Below, in pieces: positions 10,330 to 52,740 of a stretch of 58,221 bases of DNA. Origin of the DNA: Girardia tigrina (taxonomy: Eukaryota); contig MQRK01240735.1 in the NCBI GenBank assembly GCA_001938485.1, positions 1-58,221 on the forward strand, read 5' to 3'. The position numbers and the translations under genes are program-made. The notes below the pieces were generated by a model. The model had not been told where the DNA came from, made no database searches, and saw nothing but the letters and a program-made list of their open reading frames with translations. The first letter of the stretch is position 1; every line of letters begins with the position of its first letter.

Positions 10330-13300
10330 ATGAATTCGCCTAGTGGAGATGTAGGACACGATAAATTTACTGTGGTTTTCATTCTGGGAGGACCTGGATG
10401 CGGCAAGGGTACTCAGTGCGCCAATATCTCGCGAGTAATTTCCATGTTTTATGACGGGAAACTGTTTTGTGTCGATTTTCTTAATGATTTATTTTTATTT
10501 TCTATCCAAAGAAATTTTAAGCAAAATAATTATTCTAAAAATAAAAAAAAAATTTTTAATTTAATGTTTTTTTCTTTTTGGAAATTTTTTTATATCGCCT
10601 TACACAAATGTTTTTAAAATCAGAATATTTTTAACATATATTTTTTTTCAATTTTATACAAAAGAATTAAGGAAAAAAATATTTTTTATTATCTATAATT
10701 TAATTATTCATTTGTCTATTTATTATTATATATTATTTAATTATTTTCTTATTATTAATAATTATTATTTAATACTTTTTTTATTATTATTCATAATAAT
10801 AATCTAAACCCTGAATTTTTAATGATTTATTTTTATTTTTTTAAAGATTTATTTTTTATTGTTTTTTATATTTTATCTAAAGAAATTCTAAGTAAAAATA
10901 TTCTTCTAAAAAAATTCCAAAATATTATATTTTTCTTGTTTTTTTTTCTTTTGGTAAACTCTTTCATATCGCCTCCGACACATTTTCAAAATCATAATAT
11001 TTTTTCGAAATTTATTTAATTATTATTCTTATATATAATTTAATTATTTATTTGAATAATTATTAATATGTACTTCTTTATAAATTACTATTTACTTTTT
11101 TACTTTTTATTAATAATAATTATTTAATAATTTATTATTTTAATATGATTATTTAATTTAACCCATTTTTAATGATTTATTTTCATCCAAAGAAATTTTA
11201 AGTAAAAATATTTATAATAATTAAAAAATTTTTGTTTTTTCTTTTTGAAAACTGTTTTAAATTACCTTCCATAAATATTTATACCATCATAATGTTTTGA
11301 AAATTATTTTTGTGAATTTTATACAGCAAAATTAACCAAAAAATATTTTTTTTAAAAAAATACAAAAAAAATTTAAAAAAATGTTTGTAAAAAGATTTAT
11401 GGGAGGCGATAGAAAACAGTTTTTAAACGAAAAAAAACAAAAAAAACAGAAGTTTTTTAATTTTTGAGAAAATTATTTTGACAGAATTTCTTCGGATAAA
11501 AATAAATGATCAATAAAGTGAAATTAAAGTTTGAAATGTGCAAAATAAATAAATAATCATGTAAATAAATAAACAGCAGAACTTTGTTAATACGGACTTC
11601 ATGGTACATTGAAAGACAGCGCGTATTAAACAAAGTCTGTTGTAACGAAGTTTTACTGAAGAACGGTATTTTAGTTTGGAAACTCTTCAACTAGAAATAT
11701 TTTTATAATTATTTTTTAAATGATTGATCAATATTTTTCATAAAGAAAGATTTTTTGAGTGTTTAAAAATCATTAAAACTCAAATTTTAAGAGAAATACA
11801 AACAAAATATTTTATTAAGAAATTTCAAAATAATTTTTATTAAAATCAAATTTTATTGTCGCAATATTTTTCGGTGGAATTTCCACCATCTTCAGGCTGA
11901 ATTAACGACAATTTCGCTGTCGTATGTATAGCAAATTGATGATTATGCAAACATCTTGCGTAATAACTAATTAAATATTTTCAACAAATTGGAAGAGAGA
12001 TTTGTTTGGACATTAATGCACGGATTAAGTGATTTAATCAATAATGCCTCACAAGTAACTCTTTCCCAATATTTTTTAAAATTACTGCACAATATCTTCA
12101 AATTAGTTGTTTTCACCTCCGATCTACAACCCTTCATATGTCCAGCAATATTACTCCCATTACCCAATCGTCCATGCTCCTGACTCCGTTTACAGAGATG
12201 ACGAGACGTCTCTCCAATGTATATAACGTTGCACCCATTACACGAAAATTGATAAACCAGATTGGAACATAAACTCTATTAAGAACACTAATTAGACTTT
12301 AGATATTTTTATTTACACAACAATTTTGATTGTACAATTGCACTGTAAACTAAATTGATTAATGATTTAATTCTAATTATTTTTTAGCAAATGGAGAAAT
12401 AAATAATTTATTAAAATATTTACTCAAAACTTATTGGATTAAAATAAAATAATTATTTAAAAAATATTAATTTGATTTATTTATTAAAAATTGTAAATAA
12501 AATTAATTAACTTATTTAAAATTTTACAATTATTTTAAATTAGAAATAAATTTAAACATAACATATTTTTAGATAATAAGAATTAAAATATTAATCATCC
12601 ATCTGGGTAGGAGAGACACAATTCCACATAAACATACAACATTCAAACACAAAACATCAAACATTCAAAATATTCCTCACAAACTCAAAGGAGTACGAAA
12701 TTTATTGCTGAACAAAACTTTGAATTTTGTAAGATTTAGTAATGACTTTTAAATTCAAATATAAATTCAAATATTGTGCAGTAATTGTAAAAATTATTGG
12801 GAAAGAGTTACTTGTGAGGCATTATTGATTAAATCACTTAATCCTTGCATTAATTTCCAAACAAGTCTCTTCCAATTTGTTGAAAATATTTAATTAGTTA
12901 TTACTCAAGATGTTTACATAATCATCAATTTGCTATATATAAGACCAGTGGTTCCCAAACTTCCTTGCCAGGCGCCCCACTAAATATAAAAAAAATTTGG
13001 CGCCCCCTACATGTTCCACCAGGATATATGGTGTTATAAAAATGCTTAAATTATTATTGTTATTAAGTGAATTTTTAAATTTAATTTTAATTTAACACAT
13101 GGACTGTGTGTTTCATCGTAAATTCTCAGCCTACTTCCATGTTTGAAACGCATTCTACCCATCTATAGAAAACTTCATGAAAATAGGTTAAACCCGTTTA
13201 TTTTAAATATTCAAATTTACCTCATCTTCATTAAATTTGTTCTTAATCTCACTATGTAAATAAGGAAGTTGAGAATACTGTTCATAAATGGTTGCTCGGC

Positions 13301-16300: not shown

Positions 16301-19300
16301 AACGTCCCGGATCTGAACACGGTAAATTAATCAATGAATCGATCAAGAATGGAGTTATAGTACCAGTGGAAATCACCTGCAAATTGTTGGAAAAGGTTCG
16401 ATTTTGACATTTCGGATAAAACTAACTGTGATAGCGAAAAATAATTTATTATTTATTCTCATTTATTTTTACACAATTTTGAAGATTTTTGCTATTTTTT
16501 TCGATGTTTAGTTTGAAAGGGGAAATGTTTTTATTACCATAAAAATCGACGATAGAGCTACATATACCCATGGAAGATTTATTATCAAATAGAAATGAAT
16601 TGTTATCAGAAACTCTTTGTTTGGGGGAGCATTACAAACAACATTAAGAACCACTTCTTCAGATTAAATATATTCGCATTTCTTATTATTCAAATGATTG
16701 AATTACTTATTAAAATTAACATAATAATTATTTAAATATCCAATGTTGAAATTCAAATCTTTTTTCGATATTTAAATAAATCAAATTTTTAAAATTCGAA
16801 TGAAGTTACTTCATATAATTCAAATATTCTCCTCACAAATCGTCCCAGATATTATTCGAAAATATTCCTCATAAATCTAAATCCAAAAATCCGTTAGTTT
16901 AATTAATACATCGCCTAACATCAGGAGCGTACGCACGGGTGGGGATTAGGGGGATAAATCCCCCCCCCCCGAAAAGTTTGAATCTTAATTACGTAATTAT
17001 TTTATCTGACTATAAATAAGATTAAGTTAAAATGTTTGAGTTATAATTTGTGAAGTATCCGAAGCAATACTTTGAAAATCGAAGAAAATCCCCTCTGAAA
17101 AATTTTAATTATGATCATAATTACCCATACGTTTTGCAGACCATATAAATTTTTCTTCCTCAAAACATAAAACATGCTGCAGATAATGAAATCCTCCTAT
17201 CTATCGAACCCAGTAATGAACAATGGTCAAGTTATATTAGTTGCATTAGCGGTATTTCGATGGTATTATAAATTTTATTATTTTAACAATAATTAATTTA
17301 ATTTTTTTAACTGTTGTTGTTGCATGTCGTCACATTTTTGTGCTGGTAATAATAACTTATTATATAATATTATTATATTATTATATCTTATCATATGACA
17401 CTCCCAATAATTTTTAAAATGCTTGCACAAAATCTTAAAATCATTTATGTTCATATTACATTTACACAGTCAAAAAGGGGGAAAGAGTAATATTGCTGAG
17501 CATAAAAAAACGTGTAACTGTAATATGAGCATAAATGATTTTAAGATTTTGTGCAAGCATTTTAAAAATTATTGGGAGAGAGTGTCATGTGAAGCATTGT
17601 TGATAAGATCATGTGATCCTAAAATCAATGTTCAAACAGCACTCTCAACTAATTTGTTAAGAGTTTCCGATTAGACTTATGTAAGTGATTACATAATCAT
17701 TCATTTCTTCTATAAAAGCAATAAAGAACATAATCTGATAAGAACGTGACCTGATGATGACGGTTAAACCGTCTAAATATATTATCACAAAATATATTTT
17801 TAAATGGCGTTTATTTGTTTTTAATAATAAATATCATATTTCTTTATTATTTTTAATATATGTATTGTTACATAAATAAAATAAGTTTAGATATGAAATG
17901 TCAAATATATTGTCAAAGTTTCACATGCCAGATTTAGTGTATAATTCCACTGTTTTCATCTAAAGTCACATGTATCAACTTGTTTATCTCTACAATTGTC
18001 TAAACTGTCACGTAGAGCATTAATATATTTACAAACATAAGTTGATGGGAAAATGACAAAGGTTAAAATGACATTAACTTTGATAGTTCAAATGTAAACA
18101 TAACATCAACTTCATATTCCTTTATCTGAGTTTGAAATTTTAATTTAAAAATAATAAAATGAAGTTTTCTATGGGATATTAGATTAAAAATAATGGTGAT
18201 AATAAAAAACTTTTTCATATATGTAGTGTTCACTAAATCTTATCAGCAGCAGCAACCAATTAAGGGTTTTTCTAGGTTATATTTAGTTTAATTTTTGATT
18301 TTATAATTATTTAAAATGTCTCAACTGGGTTTTCGATCCCTGAAATGTTTGAGCTGAACAAATCCAGACTTACATTAAAAATTTTTAATTCTAGTAAAAT
18401 TTAAAAACTGATTTTTAATCATTGAAACTTTTAATATATTAATTTTGTGTTTTGTTTTATTAATTGATGCGTTGTATTCGAAAATTAAGCAAAATAAATT
18501 TATTGATTTCAGTTGAATTTTTTCAAATATCAATTTTTTTCAATTGAAACAAATCAATTTATCTTTTACAAAAATAAGTAATTGCGTTTCTTTATCCATG
18601 TCCGATACCATTATCGACAAATCCGATGAGACAATCGACAATTTAGTACTCGAATTTTACGCTCCTTTTGAACAAATAATCAATCTATCGTATTTTCTGG
18701 AAAATAATATCGATCATCTTCTCAAATCAGAAAATCCTCCGATGATTTCATGCAAAAATCGCCGACTGAATTTCGATCCTACAACCCCCAAATTTAAGTG
18801 GGACAATCGATATTTGATTAATTCAATCTCGAAATTGCCGGTATGTGGCTTTACGAAATGCACGTTTTCGGATTTGAGTTTGAGTACCGATGTTGTAAAT
18901 GCCCTCAAAGAAAATCGATTCGTGTGTCCGACGAATATTCAAATTAGCACAATCCCAACAATTGTCACTGGACTGAATGCCATTTTGGACAGTTAAACCG
19001 GTGGCGGTAAAATCTGTGGAATGATATACGCAGCCAGTCTGAGGCCTAGAGACAGTCTCGTTGCGTTCATGCCGAGAATGAGTTCTCTCGGCTGTGTCCC
19101 CTTGGATACGCACTTCCGTTTGTACAATATCAGTGACCCTGGTCACATCAATATAATATAAAAACAATTAAGCCAATTAAACTCTTTATTTTAGTATTTA
19201 CTAATTTTGACGTTTTAGCCATCATCACCATAACAGATGATTATTAAAAAGAATTTTACTTATATGGTACAGTTAATGATTACATGAATATGTAATTAGT

Positions 19301-22300
19301 ACGTCATTATAAAACACTTAATAAAGTTTTTGTGTAGTTTGAACGTTGATTTTAGGATCTTAGATTTTTTTACTGAATTTTATATGTAGCGTTACACCCA
19401 TTACATGTATATTGATAAACAAAATCTGAACATATTCCTGATGATGTGAGAGATTTATTGTTGAACATACTTCGATGTTTTGGGTACGTGATATTATTTT
19501 TAAATATATTACATTATCTAGTGCTTTTAAAATAGAATTTGAAATGTCTTAAAATCTGAGTAAGGAATAGGAAAACATCCAATTTCTAGATTGTTATTAT
19601 TAGTATTGCAATAATAATCGTGATCTTCAACATCTGTTTGTTTATTTTTCTTAATTATTTTATCAATAGTTTCCTTTGTTAGTTTTTCCACTATTGATTT
19701 TGAATATCCATTATCATATCTGTGAGGGAAAATTCGGAATGTTGTAAGTTTGTTGTTTGTATGCTGTTTAGATGGGTGACTCTCTTACTCAGTTGGGATT
19801 GATATGTTATTGATTAATTATTTAAATCTAATGAAATTAATTTAATGAGATTAATTTTTAAATACTAATTAATTAAAAGTTTTATAATTATAAATTTTAA
19901 TAATATTTTTGTAAACGANNNNNNNNNNNNNNNNNNNNNNNNNNNNNNNNNNNNNNNNNNNNNNNNNNNNNNNNNNNNNNNNNNNNNNNNNNNNNNNNNN
20001 NNNNNNNNNNNNNNNNNNNNNNNNNNNNNNNNNNNNNNNNNNNNNNNNTCGTGGTTTTTTTGCGCAAAATTTGATATTTTTTTTGCCCTAAAACCGAGGG
20101 TGGACTGTATTTACATTTATTTGTTCGACAAAAATTAAATTAAATAAAAAAGCTTTATATTTGATTTTGTTATAACAAGGTGTTAATTTAATTTTGTCAG
20201 TTTTTGTTTATCTTTGTTTATATACTATTTTCTGGTGATTATTATTGCTGTTTTGTATTCCATTGTTTTGTGTTCAAGGTATCGACTTGAGCAGTTTTGT
20301 CTTTCGTTTTTTTGACTCTCGCTGTTTTTTCTTTTGCAGTTTTGATGCGTAACTATCTGTATCAGATTCAGAATTTTCCATGCCAGAATTTAATATAAAC
20401 TTTCGCATTTTCGACACGTAATTATCTCATTCCTATTCAGAATATTCAATATCCAAATTTTCTTCAAAAATATACTGAGCGATTCCGATAATTACGGGAT
20501 CTGAATTAAAGCAATATGACTCTTCATGTACTGAAGACTCGCTTATATCTTTCAAGATTTCAAACATTTCAATTAATTTGTTTTTTTGGAGATTTGAGCC
20601 TTGTGAACAAATGTTGAGCAGTATTTCCTTTAAATATTTTTCTATATCCAACGAATACGGAACGATTTCTAATCTGAAATTGCTGATTATTCTTATAAAT
20701 ATAGAAATAAATATTTCATTATGTTTTATTTTCATTAATTCTAAAAGTTGAAAGACAACATGACGTATATACGTAACGAATTCGTTGTCTTCCTTACTTA
20801 CATATAATAATTCCACAAGAACATCGCTTGCCATAACCATGACCGTCAGATATTGGTCATGTTTGAATAAAAACATCAATTCAGAAACCAATAATTCTAC
20901 AAGACTTTTGTCTTGTAAATGTATAACAACCAATTGTTTAATTAACCAGCAAGCTTTTGTTATCATCAATATTTCAGACGACTTTAGTTCCGGAATCACA
21001 AATTCAAGAATAAATAATTCAAGTTGTTGAATGAAATGGTTTCGTTTTGAAAATGATTCTGATAATGTTCCTATAACATTAAAATAGATACGTTTAGTAC
21101 AGGGTGTGATTTCTTGACAACGAAACCTTTTGAGGATTAAATGAAATAAAGATTCTAGAAATGTTTCATCACATTCAGAGACCTCAATTATCATCTTTTC
21201 AATTTTCGACTTACATATATGTTTCCGTGAATTGTACAATAATTGACAGAACTTCTCTGGGTCATTTTGCAGCGAGAGGTTTGCTGCTTCTTCGTCCTTA
21301 CTGAGAAATCCGAAAATTAAAGTTTGAAATAAATTAATCAAATATGGTTGCAAATATTTCAGTAAATTAGAACATCTTATAAAAGATAAACAGCAATTAA
21401 TGATAGTATCAAACACTTTTGGATGAATATAGCTTCCGTTCGAGTAATTATCACAAATTTGGTTCAATATCAGAATAATAGTTGTCGGAAACGACTCCCA
21501 AATCCATGAGTCTGAATTTTGTGATAAAGTTTGATGTTTGTAAGTGTCAATAAATTTTGAAAGTAAAATAACTGCCCATATCTGACAATTCGTTAACATA
21601 GACTGTGTGGATCTTTCGTTGATAACTCTCATGCTTATGATACCAGCAGATCGGACCCAAAATTGAAACTCTTCTTTCGGAATGTCCTCCAAATATCTTA
21701 GCAAAAAGTAACGTGTTTGTAGAATATGTTTTTGTAGAGTAATTCCAATTTCAGATTCATCATTTAAAAAAACTTGTAAATGTTTCTTCATTATTGTATT
21801 TATGGTGGAAGAACAAGTATCTAAGAATGTATCATAACGATAATTGCTAAACAAGTGTTGGAAGCATATGTAACCCGAAATCCAATGGTCATGATTTTTA
21901 TTTTCAAAGATGTTTATAATTTCGTTTGGTAAATCATACCAAGGTTTTGGAAAATCATAGTAGATAATGTGTTCATAGGTTAATAGAAGATCTTTTTGAA
22001 TAACATCTTCTGATTTCACAATTCCATCAATAATCTTTGATTTTATATATAATTTATCTGTTTCATTAATGAAAATTGAACCTATATTTGTTTTAGACCA
22101 ATAATGTTGAATGTGTTTTCTCAAAAGGGAGGCAGCTTCTCTTTTCACATCCTCTTTCGATTCTCTTAACATACAAATGTCCATTAAATGCCTCGAAACT
22201 CCTGCAGTTTCTTCTATCTATTTCGAAAAAGGCAAATTAATCACCATAAACTAATTAAATAACAAACCTTTTTCAGGATTTCATTTTTTTCATTTAGTTT

Positions 22301-25300: not shown

Positions 25301-28300
25301 AATATGTATTGTTATTTTTTATTATTTCCTTTTATCCGGGTATTGCAATGTAAACATTGGTATCCGATATTTGGATAATCAGGCTTCTAAGGGTTAATTT
25401 TTACTATCGGAGAAAAAATAATTTGTTTTCAGACGAAAGACCTCTACTTTATAATCGTTATTAAGACGCTGAAATATTACAAATTACCACCATTAATTTT
25501 TTTTTCTTAAATTTTATTTTTTATTTAAAATTCTTTATTAAAATGTGAATCAATTAAAGATCATATTAATATGTTCTATAAAATACATATAATAATAATT
25601 TTTACTAATATTGATTAAATCTTAATGTGGATCAGTGAATATTTATTTGATATATATTAATCATTTAAAACTTTCGCACCGTTTTTTGGATATTTTCACA
25701 CACATACACAACGATCTACATTCTATTTGTAGGAGAATATTTCAGAGAACATTATATGAACTGAATGAACGCGAGAGTGCGCGCCACTGTGTACAGATCT
25801 GTGTTTTGATTGGCTGTCGTTCTGCTTCAAGTGATCCCGTAGCACTTTTGCACGTCTCACGCGACTATCGATTGCAATGCTAATGTCACTGAAATACACA
25901 AGTTGTGTAGCTATTATTCTAGCTTTGAAATTTATCAAAATGCCATTTGAAATTACAAAATTTTATACTTAACGAATTAAATTTACACAAGCAATTGGTT
26001 TTGCTGCTGTTAGAAATAGACTTTCTCATTTAAATCCAATTAATAACTATGTGATTGCATATTCTTCGTTGAAAGTTTTAAAATCATGATCTGAGAAATC
26101 CACATTTTTAAAGATCATATGACATTATGTAAGTTTTTACTGATTTATTCAATTTCTATTATTTTATAGAACATTTAGTTCTATAAAATAATAGAAATTG
26201 AATAAATCAGTAAAAACTTACATAATGTCAAATTTAAATACCGATTTTTCTTTGGGCTAAGATGTTTTCTGTCGTGTGAGTTCTTTACGGTAGACCTAAA
26301 CTATACTATTTCTAAAACCCATGTTACTGATTATCCTTATTTCTACTTTCCTTATCAGAGGCAAAACTGTCGAGAAGAAAGTGATTCTACAACCTTACAA
26401 AAAATAATTAACAGATTTTCTGATTTTCTTAATTTTTGTTTTTGATTGCTGTATTCTCTATTTTTATTTTTTGTCGTGTTTGTTTTGGTTTTATAGGAGT
26501 ATTTGAATTTTATTTATGTCGTTTTGAAAGTATTCATGATATGGTTTATTTTGTGAACAAACCCCTGTGGTTCGTTTACATAATTTATTATTTGGTAATG
26601 ATTTTATCAATTGCCTAAAGTTTCCATTTTTAAGTATTAACCCCTTTACCGTGAAAAAAAATTTTTTTTTTTCATCCGCTGTTGAATTGGCTGTTAGTTT
26701 AGCCTCCCTCTCTACATTGTTATTGATTTCCAATGCTTTTTCTGTATCAGGACGAGTTAACTCGGGACGCACGGCACACAGACGACTTTTATATATCTGA
26801 AGACGAGTTAACTCGTGATGTACGGTTAAGTCCAAGATTTCATATGACGAGTTAACTCGTGACACATGGTAAAGGGATTAAAGAATTTGGAAGATGCTCG
26901 GTTATATAGAATTATTCATTAATAATAGGATTAAATTTTACTACTTTTTGTTTTTTTTCATGTAACATTTAGTAGTTTAATAACCAAAAGTTGGTAAATA
27001 TCGTGTGTTAGAGAAATAATCTTTCTTTTAGACTAAGTCAGCAGTTTATTTAAAACTTGAGCAAATAATACTTTGATTTTGTGTGTAATTTGATTTCACT
27101 CTAAGTTACTTGCTATTTTTTATTTATCTGGGCTTTTATTTATTGGTGCTAAAATATTTTTTGTCATTTATGAAATCATATAATATAAATTTTTATTATT
27201 GTCCCCATAGACAGAGCAGTTTTGGGTGACCAAAGATGATTTAATACAGGGTTCACCAAAGTGAACGATGATAATCAGGGTAGTCGTTGAGATATTATTT
27301 GTTTTTAGCAGTTTTCTAAAAATGTTCATATTCAACAGAAAGGAAACAATTTTGAAAGTTAAAGAAGCTAAGATAAAAAGAAAAACATTTAACATTATCT
27401 CATAAAGATTGGAAGTTTTTCATTAAAGTTATTTTGAACATAAATACGATAAAATGTGTTTCACAGAAAAATATTTGTCTTAGTGTATATTATTGTTATA
27501 TTTAAAACTACTCCTATCTTTTCCATAAAAGTAATTCTAAAAATTCTTCACATAATTCATCATAGTGTTCAAAATTATGTTTCATCGCTTCTATATACGG
27601 TGAAAAATGGACATCTTCTGAAGCTGATACTATAAGTGAACTAAAGGATTTTAATATTCTTTGACATTCGTTACAACTATCGACGTATTATTATTCTAAA
27701 AAAATTACGAAATTAAATAAATTATGATGAAAAAGGTCTATGAAATATTTCTGAAATAGTTGAAACATTTGAAGAATCTATTCTACATTGACAATTTTCC
27801 CATAACTTGCGAAAACTATTTCAATAAAAATAATTGAGTTAAACAGGCTGACGTATTGAACGATGACCTGATAGAATACTGACGTACGTTTAGAGGAGGT
27901 TAAATGACTAAAAATAGTTTTATCTTACGTTCATTTATGATCAACAACCTTGATAAACTTTGTTGTCTCATAATATACTCTTGATCAAATTAATTGCAAC
28001 ACTGACGTTTTTTACACTTGCAGATTTATTTTCAAACAAACACGATCAAAAGTAGAATCAAAACAAGTTATTTATCCAGTAGTCATTAGAAAGGTATATG
28101 ACCTCCTTTAGCCTTGATCACACAGAAAATTCTATAAGACACAGAGGAAACTATAGCTTCACGTTTGGGTGTCAAATCAGGATCTCTGTCATAAATCAAA
28201 TGAAGAAGTTTTGGAATGATATACAAATTCATTTTAGAAAATCATTTATTGGTATAAACTTACGTTAAATAAAGATATTATAAACCTGCATTTATTTTTC

Positions 28301-41110: not shown

Positions 41111-44100
41111 GTCGATAATAATCGACTATTATCGGGTGATAATTCGATCAGAGCGGCCGATGTCGCGAATTCGATTATCGATACGAGGATCGACGATTTC
41201 GGTCGACCGTTGCCGCCGTTGTCGGAATCATTCGGCGAGAAAATCGATGCCGGTGAACTGGATTCCGCGAGGACGGAAAGGATTTCGATGATTTTACAAT
41301 TCGCGGTGAGATTCGATTGGACAATCATCGGATCGGATTTGTGGTAGAGGCGGTAGAGGAGCGCGATATAAAACTCGAAAAATAATTTGAAAAATTGTAA
41401 AAGATTTAATAAAATTTATTTACAACAATGGCATTTATCAACAAAAACTGTGTATTAAAACAAAAACCAACTTTGATAAAGATTTAATTTGCATAAAAAA
41501 AATCATTTGATTTGTTTGAGAAAATCATTTAATTTGTATGCGAATTTGACTGAGAAAATTTGTAATTATAAATAAGAAATATCGGATTTTAATATATATT
41601 TAATATTTATAAATACCGATTATAATTTTGTGTCACTACAAGAGGGTTCACTGTATATATTTGTCTGAAATCGGTCATTCTCAATTGTCGGTCAAACTCA
41701 AAGTTTACTATTCGGTGGTTGTAAATTTAGGAATTTATGTGCTTCTTATTTTTTTATATCTCTTTCTTCTTGTACAACTCTTTAATAATTCCATGTATGC
41801 GTATTGTTTTGGGTAGATCTGAACTAAATTAAACTTGGTTTGAATGCATGACAGTTTTTTATTCACTTGTACCACTTATTTATTTTTATATTTTTGTTAT
41901 GTGATTTTTATATTTTTGAAAAGATTATAAGATTCTTTTTTGTGAAAGAAAGACGATGCTCGATAGAGGAATTGGTTAGGGAAAGTCCATGAAGTTTAAA
42001 TGTTTAAGAATTAATGTTTTTATTATTATTATTTATTTAATTTTCTTTTTTATTATTTAATTTAATTAGCAATTGCGGATTTAATTGTTATTCATTTATG
42101 AGGTGTTAATTTAAATTTTTATCTCGCCTGAATAATTTATTATTTTTTAATTTAAGGGATAAAATATTTTTATGTTAATATGCTTATTCAATATTTTAAA
42201 ATTAAAAATGATATAATAAAACAACTATTAAAAAATCAAAAACGTTGTAACACGCGAAAAGTTTATTTTCAAAAACAATGTCTAATTGATAATATTCAAA
42301 CAAAATATTTATCAAAAAAGTAAATATTAAATATTTCAAATAATTAAAATATCTAATATCCAACACTCCCACCAGATTCGTCCACAGAAGAATCTGAATC
42401 CACAATGTAATCATTTAGATAAGGCGGTCTTCGTCTTTCTCTACTAGGCCGACTTTCCAATAATTGTTCCTCTTGTGTTTGATTGTTTGGTAGTGATGCA
42501 GTTTCCTCCATATCCATATAGTATGACTTGGAATTTTCAACCAAGTCAGGCTGTCTAGGTCGAATGTCTGCGATATGTCTTGGACCACAAAATCCGTTGC
42601 AATTTANNNNNNNNNNNNNNNNNNNNNNNNNNNNNNNNNNNNNNNNNNNNNNNNNNNNNNNNNNNNNNNNNNNNNNNNNNNNNNNNNNNNNNNNNNNNNN
42701 NNNNNNNNNNNNNNNNNNNNNNNNNNNNNNNNNNNNNNNNNNNNNNNNNNNNNNNNNNNNNNNNNNNNNNNNNNNNNNNNNNNNNNNNNNNNNNNNNNNN
42801 NNNNNNNNNNNNNNNNNNNNNNNNNNNNNNNNNNNNNNNNNNNNNNNNNNNNNNNNNNNNNNNNNNNNNNNNNNNNNNNNNNNNNNNNNNNNNNNNNNNN
42901 NNNNNNNNNNNNNNNNNNNNNNNNNNNNNNNNNNNNNNNNNNNNNNNNNNNNNNNNNNNNNNNNNNNNNNNNNNNNNNNNNNNNNNNNNNNNNNNNNNNN
43001 NNNNNNNNNNNNNNNNNNNNNNNNNNNNNNNNNNNNNNNNNNNNNNNNNNNNNNNNNNNNNNNNNNNNNNNNNNNNNNNNNNNNNNNNNNNNNNNNNNNN
43101 NNNNNNNNNNNNNNNNNNNNNNNNNNNNNNNNNNNNNNNNNNNNNNNNNNNNNNNNNNNNNNNNNNNNNNNNNNNNNNNNNNNNNNNNNNNNNNNNNNNN
43201 NNNNNNNNNNNNNNNNNNNNNNNNNNNNNNNNNNNNNNNNNNNNNNNNNNNNNNNNNNNNNNNNNNNNNNNNNNNNNNNNNNNNNNNNNNNNNNNNNNNN
43301 NNNNNNNNNNNNNNNNNNNNNNNNNNNNNNNNNNNNNNNNNNNNNNNNNNNNNNNNNNNNNNNNNNNNNNNNNNNNNNNNNNNNNNNNNNNNNNNNNNNN
43401 NNNNNNNNNNNNNNNNNNNNNNNNNNNNNNNNNNNNNNNNNNNNNNNNNNNNNNNNNNNNNNNNNNNNNNNNNNNNNNNNNNNNNNNNNNNNNNNNNNNN
43501 NNNNNNNNNNNNNNNNNNNNNNNNNNNNNNNNNNNNNNNNNNNNNNNNNNNNNNGACAGTCTTCGTTTTATTAAAAGCTCAGATGAAGCCTTAGTATTTA
43601 ATTTTTCGCGATCTGAGATTGTTGTGGTTACCCACGAAACTACTGACTTATTATCCGATTTTACTATCACACTCCTTAAAACCCATTTCACATATAAGTT
43701 AAAACCATTTACAACTGCTTCTAGTTCTGCTACATTAATATGTCTAGAATCATCAGTTTTCTCAACCATGATGCGTCCTCAATTATGTTTCCTTTGACTT
43801 CTAACACCGCACCAATGGCTATTGAACTTGCGTCGCACCATATAATACCTTCCATGCAGTCATCAATAGCCCATAAACCTCTGCAAGAATCACTCTCCCT
43901 CACTGTCTTTAAAACCCATTTAATCTTCTCGAATAATTCCTCGTCTAGCTTTTCATCCCACCTTCCCTCACTAAGTCGTTTAAGATATGAACATGACAGA
44001 CGTAGCCAATTAGCTACCGGATGTATTCCTACTAATTGTCCACATAACGAATATAACTCACGACGTGAAATTGATTCTACATCCAGCTCATCCCTTACCT

Positions 44101-45250
44101 GATTGTCCCTCTTCCATCTCACTACATGTTGGTCCTTAAAGACTTTCATTCCTAAAACTCGAACTTCGTTGGCTTGTGACAGATTTTCCGGTTTCTGACA
44201 TTTGAGACCGAAGTTATTGAACACTTTTTCTACTTCTTCAACAGAAATGAAACTTTCATTTACATAAATATCATCAATATAAGAGTCAGTATTTTCACGC
44301 ATCCTAGTGTCAGAGTTCAGAATCCACCTGACGATTTTGGTCATTATAGTTGGTGCAATGTTTAAACCAAAACCCATCTTAGTTAAAGCATATTTCTTGT
44401 TATTAATGATACAAGATTGGTAACGCCACATCTCCTTATGAACATGAATCTGCATGTACGCCTCTGACAAATCAAGCATTGAAAAAGTCGAACCCCTACG
44501 TCGCCAATCGCGGAGCTTTTCTAAACATATGTCCGCAGAACCACTATAAACGTCCACGTAATTGTTTAATTTTCTAAAATCAAAAATGGGTCTAATCTTG
44601 GACTTATTAGCCTGTAATATTCCAAATATCGGTATGGATCCTATCGATTTACCCATTTCTTTCTCATTGTACTCGATTAGATAACCCTTTTCTACCCATC
44701 CGTCTAAAATTTTCAACGTTGTAACATCTTTTAATTTGTTGTCATTAAAAACTGATTGACGATTCGGAAGATGACTCGGAGCCTCACTTTTCCAATTCCA
44801 TTTAATCGACCAATTTTCCATAAACTCAATTTCAAAATTATGCTTTTTTATACTAACAAGAGGCGCATCCGATGCAGTACAACTCAAGCTACTATCTNNN
44901 NNNNNNNNNNNNNNNNNNNNNNNNNNNNNNNNNNNNNNNNNNNNNNNNNNNNNNNNNNNNNNNNNNNNNNNNNNNNNNNNNNNNNNGATCCCTAGACCAT
45001 ACGGCAAATGTTCCATGACCGAACATTCCACCCTAATGATCCTACCATTTATATTCAACTGCACTTCACCTGAACCCACTCTAACACCCTTTCCATTCGC
45101 CAAAACCATATTTTCTCCGCCAAAAAACAACATACAATCACTAACTACCCCTTTTAAAACAGCAGTTTTCGAACAACCCGAATCAATCAACGCTGTGGCT
45201 GACCTGTCATTTACGGTGACGATCATCGTCGGCAACACCTGCAACTGTGA

Positions 45251-45292
45251 AGGGAGAGAGCCGGCGCCTACAAACTCCCCTGTTCGTTTCCC
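45251..45292 (-). promoter_or_regulatory. Putative -1 ribosomal frameshift signal (gag to pol)
   Basis: G GGA AAC at 45292-45286 just after the gag CCHC and before the gag stop; the -1 frame is the protease ORF; downstream GGGGAG...CTCTCCC stem. Confidence 0.7.
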
Positions 45293-46002
45293 GACCGACA
45301 ATATTTTGCGATATGACCCGGTTTCTGACATTTGTAGCATATTGTTTGTCTGTTTGATTGCCACTGAGAACCCTTATGATGATTACTTTCCTTCGATTCG
45401 GTGTCTCTCTCACTATGAACACAGGGTCTTTTCTGAAGATTTGCTCTTGGTTTAGCGAGTTCGCCCTGACCACCGGAACTCCGTGTTTCTTTGTTGTTGT
45501 TTCCGTGTTTATTGCTGCCATTGAACCCTGTAATAAACCCTTTTTAATCCCTAAATACCTGCGGCTATATTCGATCATTTCGGTCAGGGGTTGGTCGCCG
45601 GCCCGTTCCAAATCCACCTGCAACTCGAAAAGCCATGAATGCAGCCTTTGTTAGATCGTCGACCTTCGTTGCTAACATCTTCACCTGAGACGCATATTCA
45701 TCGATAGTCTCGCCATCGTGATACTGTAAGTTTATTAATTGACTGTACGCAGAACGTCTAGTCAGGCCGAACGAATTGTTTAATATCTTGAAGAACCGAT
45801 CGCAGCTGCTTTGCGTCTTCTCGTCCGATTCCATATAGATGTTCATTGCAACCCCCGATAGTGAAAAAGGGAGATACGGGGCTGGATCAGTAATCTTCTG
45901 GATTTTCATGATCATTTCAAATTTCTACTGCCAAATCTCGAAATTGATGCTTCCATCAAATTTCTCTAAAAACTCCAAAACGATTTTCATATCATTCATT
46001 AT

Positions 46003-46014
46003 GCCCGGATAGCT
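46003..46014 (-). promoter_or_regulatory. Putative atypical primer-binding site complementary to tRNA-Lys(UUU) nt 1-12
   Basis: Plus strand GCCCGGATAGCT abuts the 5' LTR directly; no TGG-initiated PBS present. Confidence 0.6.
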
Positions 46015-47099
46015 TGTAACACACGAAAAGTTTATTTTCAAAAACAATGTCTAATTGATAATATTCAAACAAAATATTTATCAAAAAAGCAAATATTAAA
46101 TATTTCAAATAATTAAAATATCTAATATCCAACAGACGTTTTTAAAAATAAAATATTTTTTAATGTATCTATTAAATATCATAATATTAAAAATGTCAAG
46201 AAAACAAAAATATTAAATATTTATTTATAAATAAAAATATTTTTAATAAGCAATTTTAAAAAAAAACTTTGAAATAAATTTTGAAAATAAAGTTTAAATA
46301 ATTTTTGAAATAAATTTTCAGGATTTTAAAAATTAAATCGAAAAGAATTTAATAGATTAATTTGGGTCGAGATAATTAACAGGAAAATTTGTTTTAAAGA
46401 TGTAAATTGTTATATAAATAAATTTTGGTATTAAAAAAATGAATTCTGATATTGAGGTTGCAACCACTTCTCACATCATTTTTGGACAGAATAGTGATAA
46501 TTAAATTCATAATTGCCATGGGCAATTTTTGAATTTATTTTATGATCAATGTATTGATCAAAAATACTAAAAATAACTATTATTCTGAAATATTTTTGTC
46601 TTAACCGTTGAAAGTTTTGGTTTTTCAATTTCAATTTGCCAATCTGACTTTGTAATATTTATTCGAAAAAATCCAATATTTATTATCATTTCCAAGTTGA
46701 ACTCCATTTACCGAAAGATTTTTATTATCTCAACTACATTTTTGAATTCATCGTTATTAATCAAAGATTCATTACCAATTTTATAACTGATAATCAACGA
46801 CACATTTATCATAGTTGCTCTAATACGATTAACTAAACTACTATCGGGGTATCATAGAATATCAGACGATTTACCCTTTTGATTGTTGCCAATAAAAAAC
46901 AAAAAAAATTACTGTGATATTATATTTATAATTTTTTTATTTGGTTGAATTTGAATATTTTTTTGTTAAACAGCAGTTGAATTGTGTTAACAATACATCA
47001 TTATTTAATGTAATACGTGTGTTTATTTATGGGACTTTTACAATCAACAGTAAAAATCAGTTTATAATATAGTTATCCTTTGGTAAACTGATTTTTACA

Positions 47100-50544: not shown

Positions 50545-50862
50545 GGAACTATTCAAAAAAAAAATTGTTCAAAAGCTAATAATCTGTATTTTAGTTCAAA
50601 ATAATTTTTATGAATGTTGATTGAAAATGTTATTTACAAAAATTATTTATTTTTTTAACGAGTTATTTATGTCAAAAAATATGTTAAGTTTTTTTTAAGA
50701 AAAAACTTTAATATATAAAATATAATTGTTTAAAATAATTGTTTTAAATAATTAGCGAAAGCTAATGACACAATTTAATTTAATCAATAAAAAATATATT
50801 CGTTATTTATTCGTTCATTCATTATTTATTCTCGTTACTGGTAATTCCAAAACGATAACAAA

Positions 50863-52160
50863 ATGGTGTCAGAACAAAAAATAGAAGCCGATTCCGATTG
50901 TGGACAACTCCTTCCACTTGAATCCAAATTCCATTTGAATCGAATCACTAACAAAACTCTTCGAGGATTCTGTGAGGCTATCAAAAACATCATCGTGTTC
51001 ATTCGGGACTTGATTTGTAAAGCCAGTGTCGCTGAAGAAGAGGACTTCTACATATCGACGTCACGAATACCTATTGATGACCTGATCACAAATAATCGAG
51101 TAGCAAAAATGCTCAAAGAAGCCGACGATAAATTATTGAAATCTCTTAAATCCGAAAAATCTCAGGACACCGAAACCATCGCAAGTCTCCAACACCGATT
51201 CCGTTTCATTCGAGCTTTCCTTCTTTGGACGATGGTCAATAAAAAATTCCTCTAAAACTGTCAATCGAAACTCCAGAAGGACTCGACGTTTTCCGAAGCT
51301 TCCAAACATCTAATCGAATTGAAAGGTCTAATTGAACAAATGAAATCGCTCATTGGAAACGGAGAACCAGTGGGACCCAGCAAGAAAAATTCCTGGAAAA
51401 AACCGTATGGTCTCTTCGGATTCGAACCGTATCTCAATCAACCGCTCTTAGTACCCGCGATTCACCGCTGTGCCGGTATCGAAGAGCGCCAATCGTATAA
51501 TGGAATATTTCGAAAAATTGATCTACATCAATGACATTCTGATAATCGATGTGAACTCGGAGATATTTCCCGCGTGGGACTTCATCCAACATTTCGGTCG
51601 GTTCGGTTGCCAAGGCGCTGAATCGAACTGTGTCCTGACCCGATTGTTATTGCTCACATTTTACATTCTTTTCTTTTCGTCGAATTGTTCTCCTTCGTTC
51701 ATTCTCAATTCGGTGTCGTCTATCGATTCCGTCAACCACTACCACAATCAGAACAACAGCAAAATCGATATCATTAAATCAAGTATTCGGCAATTCATTC
51801 GATTGACGTGCTGGTTGGAAATCGAATCGACGATTAAATTGGACGAGAAACTCGCGATTTTTGTCGCAGCGTGTGTCGATAATCTGTTCCACATTCCGAT
51901 TACTCATTGTCTGAATAGATCGCGCCAAAGAAACTGGAGTTGATAATAGACGCCAATTGGGACCTGTATGACGAGTGTATGAAGGTCGATCACATTCTCC
52001 GCTCGTTAATCAATCACCAGTCGATCAATAATCACTCGCCAAGCGTCACCAATCACACACACTCGCAATGCCACAACAACAACAGAAACCACAATCACAA
52101 TCACAGCCACTGTCACTCACTCGAGGAAAGATTTGATGAAGAAGAATCTGATGAAACCAA
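50863..52160 (+). pseudogene. NAA35: Captured NAA35/Mak10 (NatC auxiliary subunit) internal fragment with stops and frameshifts
   Basis: KASVAEEEDF (human KAAVFEEEDF), RVAKMLKEADD (RVTGMLKDVED), GFEPYLNQPLL (GFEPLVNQRLL), CVLTRLLL (CVLSRSLL), HCLNRSRQR (HGHNRARQR), LYDECMKVD (LQDEAEKVD), all colinear; GC-richer than flanks. Confidence 0.85.
50864..50874 (+). promoter_or_regulatory. Primer-binding site, probably tRNA-Leu
   Basis: TGGTGTCAGAA three nt after the 5' LTR; matches the recalled tRNA-Leu(CAA)-type PBS TGGTGTCAGAAG. Confidence 0.7.
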
Positions 52161-52509
52161 GTATGTAATTCCAAATTATATAATAAATATCAGACTAAAT
52201 TATAAAAATATATATTATATCACAAATAAGTACACAAAGAATACAATGAAAAGAATGAATATTCCTCACACAACTTTTTCAAATCAAATAATAAAAGAAA
52301 ACTTAATTACAGATATCAAGTCCTTAGTCGAATTCTTCAATATATCTAAAATCTCAGATGAATTATTTTATTCTGTCACTAACATTTCTTTTATGAAATC
52401 AATGTATCCGATAAAGACATTTGTAATTTTTAAAAACTTATTATGTATAAGATCAAAATCAAAAACAGACTCACCGTACGAAGATTCGATCATTGGTAAA
52501 TCTTCACTC

Positions 52510-52740
52510 GTATCTTTTCTATTTAATTTCAATTTAAGGACATGTGCACTGACATTACCTTTAAAAAATACAACTGAAACCTTATACAAAGCAGTCATAG
52601 AAAAAATAAATTTTCCTTACTCAGTTGATCTTTTAATCACAATGGGTCATAAAATCATAATTAAATCTAATGCTCTTCTATCAAATTATTTTACAACGGA
52701 TTTAAAAACTATACAAGTCTCGATTAAATTTCGCGGGGGC
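52510..52740 (+). CDS. Ubiquitin-like domain at the N-terminus of Gag
   Basis: 77 aa VSFLFNFNLRTCALTLPLKNTTETLYKAVIEKINFP...LLSNYFTTDLKTIQVSIKFRGG aligns by eye with ubiquitin (TIENVKAKIQDKEGIP, LSDY, TLHLVLRLRGG). Confidence 0.65.

Follow-up and report, generated by a model that had tools for sequence, protein, structure and literature searches.

The question raised by this locus is how reverse transcription is primed in a long terminal repeat (LTR) retrotransposon whose LTR is followed by a 12-mer complementary to the 5' end of a tRNA. The element, 3889 bp in length, lies on the minus strand of a 58,221-nucleotide stretch of Girardia tigrina contig MQRK01240735.1 (the window), where the following features were recognized.

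46135..46139, no strand: target site duplication (TSD), 5 bp, upstream copy
46015..46134, minus strand: 5' LTR, 120 bp, TG...CA
46003..46014, minus strand: candidate primer-binding site (PBS), fully complementary to nt 1-12 of tRNA-Lys(UUU) and with no gap between it and the LTR
45268..45999, minus strand: gag (Retrotrans_gag, zf-CCHC), its ATG 3 nt past the PBS; in-frame stops in the window copy
43730..45373, minus strand: pol frame with protease, reverse transcriptase (RT; RVT_1, YIDD), DUF7047 and the first half of RNase H; contains a short N stretch
43569..43778, minus strand: RNase H, second half (RVT_3, HINxAEL), read in a different frame from the first, the window copy being frameshifted in RNase H
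42607..43554, minus strand: N stretch, at the place where relatives have integrase (Integrase_H2C2, rve); integrase positioned by comparison with relatives
42373..42396, minus strand: hairpin with a stem of 7 bp, immediately 5' of the polypurine tract; in relatives the stems are changed yet paired
42366..42372, minus strand: short G-rich polypurine tract adjoining the 3' LTR
42246..42365, minus strand: 3' LTR, 120 bp
42241..42245, no strand: target site duplication, 5 bp, downstream copy, one mismatch

The LTRs of the window copy were identical at 118 of 120 positions and both had TG...CA termini. The 5-bp TSD was exact in four full elements and carried one mismatch in the window copy. Positions 46003-46014 read GCCCGGATAGCT on the plus strand and this 12-mer occurred once in the window; on the element strand the LTR, ending in GTGTTACA, is followed with a gap of 0 nt by AGCTATCCGGGC and then by ATA and the gag ATG at 45999. 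The initial annotation, made from the window alone, had identified the 12-mer as the complement of tRNA-Lys(UUU) nt 1-12. Since host tRNA-Lys(UUU) genes begin GCCCGGATAGCTCAG (4/4 matches by ARAGORN and Rfam), the site is indeed the perfect complement of these nucleotides.

That the match is not due to chance, as had been argued from its position flush with the LTR edge, was evident from its frequency in the 1.43-Gb assembly. Thus, the 12-mer had 2443 genomic matches as opposed to 11 for a reversed control, and 2183 of the 2443, compared with none of the control matches, directly followed an LTR-end CA without a gap. Junctions of the form ACA/site, i.e., LTR-site-gag, were noted in 27 of the first 30 loci and represented seven families with differing LTR ends and gag starts; of the remaining three, one had its LTR end deleted and two were copies of a different repeat. 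In the latter two (L023 and L026) the 12-mer follows TTCAT, with no LTR-like CA and no gag match downstream. Sister copies were also chosen by RT alone (n=29, the junction falling outside the fetched stretch in 16), and all 13 in which the gag start was kept had the 12-mer (11 exactly, two with one mismatch). Minor arrangements included head-to-tail tandem elements that share one LTR and have the 12-mer after each (L314, L066 and L100), and an LTR with just 10 of the 12 bases after it, unrelated DNA coming next (L034:680-800, minus strand). The last of these is either a 3' end in which a copy of the primer was retained or a 5' end that has been truncated.

Other routes of priming were looked for in the same material. 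A TGG was present in the first 8 nt at 0/137 sites, and the 13 junction-bearing sister copies likewise lacked a TGG PBS. No 3'-end match to the PBS region was found among 35 distinct host tRNA sequences (16 anticodon types). Self-complementarity of at least 8 nt within 400 nt upstream was found at 0/137 sites, the longest being no more than 7 nt, and in the window element the LTR held no complement of 6 nt or more to the 20 nt that follow it. Self-priming of the Tf1 type and priming from a TGG PBS were rejected on these counts. Matches of the PBS region to the anticodon stem and loop were 7 nt at most, the best match being to nt 1-12, and second tRNA-pairing boxes like those of Ty1 and Ty3 were not found in the element, in which four Watson-Crick runs of 8-9 nt to tRNA-Lys occurred outside the PBS (0-3 in 20 shuffles), none of them long. 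The initial annotation had named three findings that would contradict it, namely a different host tRNA-Lys start, a conventional PBS in sister copies and a better match to the 3' end of another RNA. Each was looked for as described above and none was obtained.

The site was not confined to a single tRNA. Within the host genome, sites matched the 5' ends of four tRNAs: Lys(UUU), Ile(AAU), Lys(CUU) and a Phe-like type. The Ile(AAU) site, GGCCGAGTAGCT, corresponds to the start of the host tRNA-Ile(AAU) gene; it was the commonest string among the 100 matches listed and stood at LTR-site-gag junctions in six loci, the gag there belonging to this lineage (E 1e-19 to 1e-23 with the gag profile). The Phe-like site, GCCGCGATAGCT, dominant (GCCGCGA) among 1438 matches compared with 327 for the control, stood at LTR-gag junctions of many families. 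An intact host tRNA-Phe was not found in the assembly, only interrupted copies that start GCCGCGATAGCTCAGTTGGGA and have a Phe-like D-loop, so the tRNA behind GCCGCGATAGCT is assigned provisionally; the intact gene has probably been collapsed or masked in the assembly. The interrupted copies (L218/L233, L219, L223 and L175) break off after approximately 31 nt.

The Lys(CUU) type, which corresponds to the start of host tRNA-Lys(CUU), accounted for 19 of 37 nt-7 variants compared with 2 of 29 such changes at nt 9. After removal of duplicates, 30 of the 37 variants were distinct. Eight distinct variants with the Lys(CUU) change belonged to three small families seen here only with that base, and nine were scattered among three Lys(UUU) families, including that of the window (9 C, 8 G, 3 T). 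The sporadic excess was borderline against same-context background (p 0.05) and clearer against all A sites (p 0.004). These variants hint, short of proof, that the site may be re-copied from whichever tRNA primed. A misreading signature of m1A9 was considered and rejected; A9-to-T changes (13/29) looked enriched, but the background in TAG context had the same ratio (C2:G7:T8). A Met-type (G12) site was not found in the G. tigrina genome (97 matches vs 266 for the control), and no Thr-, Ala-, Cys- or Tyr-type family was prominent among the 100 matches listed, the search pattern lacking A at nt 7 and therefore not covering the Thr(UGU/CGU), Cys and Tyr types.

A second, gypsy-type element of 6.7 kb, with LTRs of about 300 bp and a broken pol (RVT_1, rve), occupies approximately 50565-57238 on the plus strand of the window. 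Its PBS at 50864, 3 nt past the LTR, is an ordinary TGGTGTCAGAA site, which we take to be of the tRNA-Leu type; thus, the host supports normal priming too.

Comparable sites were noted in metagenome relatives. A search with an RT profile gave 78 metagenome loci with 34-45% RT identity, of which 17 had a missing or cut junction, and the tRNA-5'-end form was present in 60 of the 61 readable junctions. Of the 61, 58 had AGCTA and then seven more bases immediately past the LTR end, two had CGCTA plus seven, and one (L128) departed; in L128 the LTR end is followed, at about 150-165, by AGCCAAGCGTCT, which would fit a tRNA with G9, although a tRNA to match it was not found. Written as tRNA, the commonest sites were GCCGAAA-, GCCTAGA-, GCCGCGA- and GCCGTGA-TAGCT. 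The first is the start of human tRNA-Phe(GAA), as given in the accessible part of PMC10505166, and GCCTAGA is the start of a tRNA-Phe gene on a viral contig. Among other variants, which like these were compared with tRNAs of other organisms and viral contigs rather than with those of their own hosts, CCGATGATAGCT (CCGATGA start) matched a tRNA-Tyr in 1/21 viral loci, GCCTCGGTAGCG matched a tRNA-Phe with G12 in 1/42, and GCCGYGATAGCT began tRNAs in 26/37, mostly Thr and Phe. For several variants no eukaryotic match was present among the tRNAs compared, and no lineage members were found in viral contigs.

The limits of these sites followed those of the tRNA. Conservation ended at tRNA nt 1, with 1.5 bits at PBS position 12 and 0.3 at position 13 (54 non-redundant contexts), while conservation at positions 1-5 is not independent since these positions were used to find most sites. 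At the other end, L132 and L135, the two CGCTA sites, have C in place of A opposite nt 12 and match tRNAs with G12, which indicates that pairing reaches nt 12; the ACA of the LTR never paired with tRNA nt 13-15 in the 54 contexts. Opposite the G6-U67 wobble of tRNA-Lys the PBS has C, so the site follows the 5' strand of the tRNA instead of being a sense copy of the 3' strand. An A at nt 9 was called for by 53 of 54 sites. According to the accessible text of PMC10275265, tRNAs with G9 often carry m1G9 whereas cytoplasmic m1A9 is rare in humans, which would explain this preference. In a quick, unrooted RT tree, Lys-type sites appeared in two separate places among Phe-type sites (one row from the G. 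tigrina genome, L375, was a long branch and was not relied on). The initial annotation had asked whether the 12-mer is conserved in relatives and covaries with host tRNA-Lys; the metagenome junctions and the four host tRNA starts bear on this as described above. Its assignment of the window site to tRNA-Lys also stood, but the scope was wider than claimed, the site being lineage-wide, switching between tRNAs and, in relatives, most commonly of the Phe type.

The site is thus real and lineage-wide, and priming from the tRNA 5' end is well supported by comparison of sequences. That a 5' tRNA fragment serves as primer, as first proposed for the window, is on the same comparative grounds very probable. 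For the source of its 3'-OH our preferred reading, with a probability of roughly 0.55, is that the 5' strand of the tRNA anneals to the site, is cut near U12, probably by the RNase H of the element, and primes minus-strand DNA. Granted priming from a 5' fragment, RNase H would be the rather likelier cutter. We infer that the acceptor stem and D-stem are opened by the PBS, which takes the place of nt 66-72 and 22-25, and that the tRNA is then cut where the new RNA duplex ends. This would resemble Tf1 self-priming, except that the tRNA is supplied in trans. The 3'-OH freed near U12 would prime minus-strand DNA, and plus-strand synthesis would copy the primer until run-off at the tRNA 5' end. Run-off copying would account for the precise limit of every site at nt 1, and would give such an end without the m1A58 stop that is used with whole-tRNA primers.

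The polarity of the pairing suits a primer, nt 12 being paired with the base that adjoins the LTR, and a whole tRNA has no 3'-OH at nt 12. As nt 12 and 13 lie inside the D-stem, this position would become a duplex edge only after annealing. The PBS-tRNA duplex was calculated at -23.6 kcal/mol, and nowhere else do the element and tRNA-Lys share a Watson-Crick run of at least 10; cofolding gave -47.9 vs -36.9 for the two RNAs apart, rough values for unmodified RNA. The RNase H residues D468, E504, D528 and D587 were kept in 76-77 of 77 relatives, a degree of conservation that is expected of any LTR element and hence no demonstration of RNA:RNA cutting. The RNase H of Tf1 generates an 11-nt primer by a cut between bases 11 and 12, as described in the accessible part of PMC7175516. 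A Tf1-like cut in trans is favored because of this precedent for cutting at an edge, the retained RNase H residues and the D-stem position.

The same sequence signature would be expected if host enzymes made the primer, either by annealing of a longer 5' tRNA fragment that a 3' exonuclease trims to the duplex or by a host endonuclease that makes the 12-mer. This alternative, though unlikely, is the most serious one, and 5' tRNA halves do prime copia (PMC10275265, accessible text). Against it, at least five tRNA types, in distant elements, share one end point inside the D-stem, which trimming would still explain, and the tRNA fragments reported in the accessible part of PMC7515703 are 16-35 nt long. 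A second alternative is that 12 nt anneal but that G10 is the last nucleotide of the primer; the two bases nearest the LTR would then be copied as DNA and trimmed by integrase. Ty3 and retroviruses include elements with a 2-nt gap and integrase trimming, the two bases that adjoin CA are nearly invariant AG, and in relatives a conserved AG often directly precedes the 3' LTR too. The G10 end is nevertheless improbable, since in L132 and L135 the base that adjoins CA varies with tRNA nt 12, which shows pairing at nt 12 while leaving the place of the cut unset.

It is more doubtful still that the site binds tRNA for packaging, dimerization or translation from the gag ATG while priming takes another route. 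In most relatives the gag ATG follows within 0-45 nt, and the site includes an AGCT palindrome, but a role of this kind would not account for the position flush with the LTR edge, the primer polarity and the lack of another PBS (0/137 sites with TGG or self-complement). Least probable is DNA synthesis that starts as a branch from the 2'-OH of nt 12 of an uncut tRNA, as in retrons, where DNA is branched from a 2'-OH; no nuclease would be needed and the RT is highly diverged and carries the lineage-specific DUF7047, but this RT keeps the layout of LTR elements and we know of no LTR element that primes from a 2'-OH. On polarity, D-stem position and the Tf1 precedent, a Tf1-like cut was ranked above all four alternatives.

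As to the lineage itself, DUF7047 was found in all of the 109 and the 120 relatives listed, none of which had Pfam RT_RNaseH (PF17917/PF17919). Relatives named in protein records were from a sponge, a bryozoan, a crab and a leafhopper. The order in relatives was PR-RT(RVT_1)-RH-IN, integrase being masked in the window, and the RT motif Y/F-I/V-D-D was present in 77/77. The RT of the window element had weak similarity to the RT fragment of the neighboring gypsy element (19% over 104 columns), its Atlas neighbors were mixed, and the best PDB sequence match was Ty3 Gag-Pol. In separate observations, sequence nearly identical to window 44990-46134 (approximately 40-65% of sampled 31-mers) was noted in sequencing runs of at least four coded organisms, and likewise in wastewater, sediment and leaf-litter runs, a pattern that may be read as close kin or horizontal spread.

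Compared with Ty3/gypsy elements (Metaviridae), these elements are alike in the order gag-PR-RT-RH-IN, TG...CA LTRs, a 5-bp TSD (4-6 bp expected) and an HHCC/DDE integrase, but they differ in lacking a 3'-CCA PBS, in an RT that matches RVT_1 weakly, in DUF7047, in an RNase H of the RVT_3 type and in their compact size of 3.8-4.3 kb. The absence of a TGG PBS paired with the 3'-CCA end (0/137) sets them apart from canonical tRNA-primed LTR elements in general. Tf1/sushi elements, such as Tf1 of Schizosaccharomyces pombe, share a very short primer (11 nt as opposed to 12 here) that is an RNA 5' end, is fully paired with the PBS and has to be cut free (PMC7175516, accessible part); here, however, the primer would be a host tRNA in trans instead of the element's own 5' end, the LTR holds no self-complement, and RNase H release is predicted from catalytic residues kept in relatives. 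Elements with half-tRNA primers (Drosophila copia, yeast Ty5, plant Osser/Bryco/Gymco-II/Bianca, fungal Copia and Helenus) likewise use a 3'-truncated 5' tRNA fragment, and their primer tRNA type can switch in evolution (PMC6317226 and PMC10886601, accessible parts). In contrast with the pairing of nt 1-12 here, their tRNAs are cut within the anticodon stem or loop. Such half-tRNA primers have been reported for Copia alone, which differs further in having integrase before RT and RVT_2. Troyka/Kuafuorterviruses, a separate animal LTR lineage once filed under gypsy, likewise show a gypsy-like order, but have CG...CG ends, a 3-bp TSD, a long zinc knuckle and IADD/VADD/LADD (PMC12440569 and PMC11673190, accessible parts), as opposed to TG...CA, a 5-bp TSD, CX2CX4HX4C and YIDD in the element described here.

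Three types of LTR primer (whole tRNA, half tRNA cut at the anticodon, and self-primer), the half tRNA being restricted to Copia, are distinguished in the accessible part of Neumann 2019 (PMC6317226), with which that of Kojima 2024 (PMC10886601) agrees, placing the cuts at the anticodon loop. In the accessible literature, Repbase and most subscription papers lying outside this scope, we found no description of priming from tRNA nt 1-12. Such a site was not described in the accessible parts of PMC12859917, PMC4558846, PMC13524379, PMC6238403, PMC8556966 and PMC5408684, or in those of papers on Troyka/Kuafu, Ajax/Helenus, errantiviruses and mollusc, annelid and rotifer elements; a term search of the accessible Troyka paper (PMC12440569) gave no mention of a PBS, and a motif search of supplements from these papers gave 0 hits in the files covered, Troyka's not among them. 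As far as the literature reached, this is likely a variant of tRNA-fragment priming not previously reported, although there is a minor but real chance that an earlier description exists somewhere.

Tentatively, then, an undescribed and widespread animal lineage of the DUF7047 type may open a tRNA at the 5' strand and use its own RNase H for a cut after nt 12, forming a fourth class of LTR priming. Such a class, possible though short of an even chance, would join Tf1-like primer cutting to a tRNA and would need neither the CCA end nor a modified-base stop. If true, this fourth primer type would be present in thousands of copies in one genome and in sponge, bryozoan, crab and leafhopper relatives, would bridge tRNA priming and Tf1 self-priming, and would make it an in-vitro question whether a retrotransposon RNase H cuts tRNA. 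The site would lie beyond the reach of the 3'-tRF silencing of ordinary PBSs and could instead be a 5'-tRF target. It is missed by PBS finders that use tRNA 3' ends, as in the accessible part of PMC13524379, while the 12-mer is itself a ready marker for the lineage.

At the opposite end of the element, the hairpin before the short polypurine tract had at least five Watson-Crick pairs in 21 of 25 elements compared with a shuffle mean of 1.3 (max 5), the tract positions in this comparison having been picked by eye. Its stem was kept with differing sequences and compensatory changes (e.g., L066, L091, L100, L113 and L125), the tract in these elements being 6-8 nt long. The hairpin is thus a second cis-element common to these elements and may set the boundary of the plus-strand primer.

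Elsewhere in the window, an open frame of 594 aa that matches the importin-beta N-terminal domain (E 5e-6) was noted at 20433-22217 on the minus strand, a near-perfect 56-bp inverted repeat with a 5-nt loop at 26117-26233, and MITE-like inverted repeats at 11839-12945 and 17401-17674.
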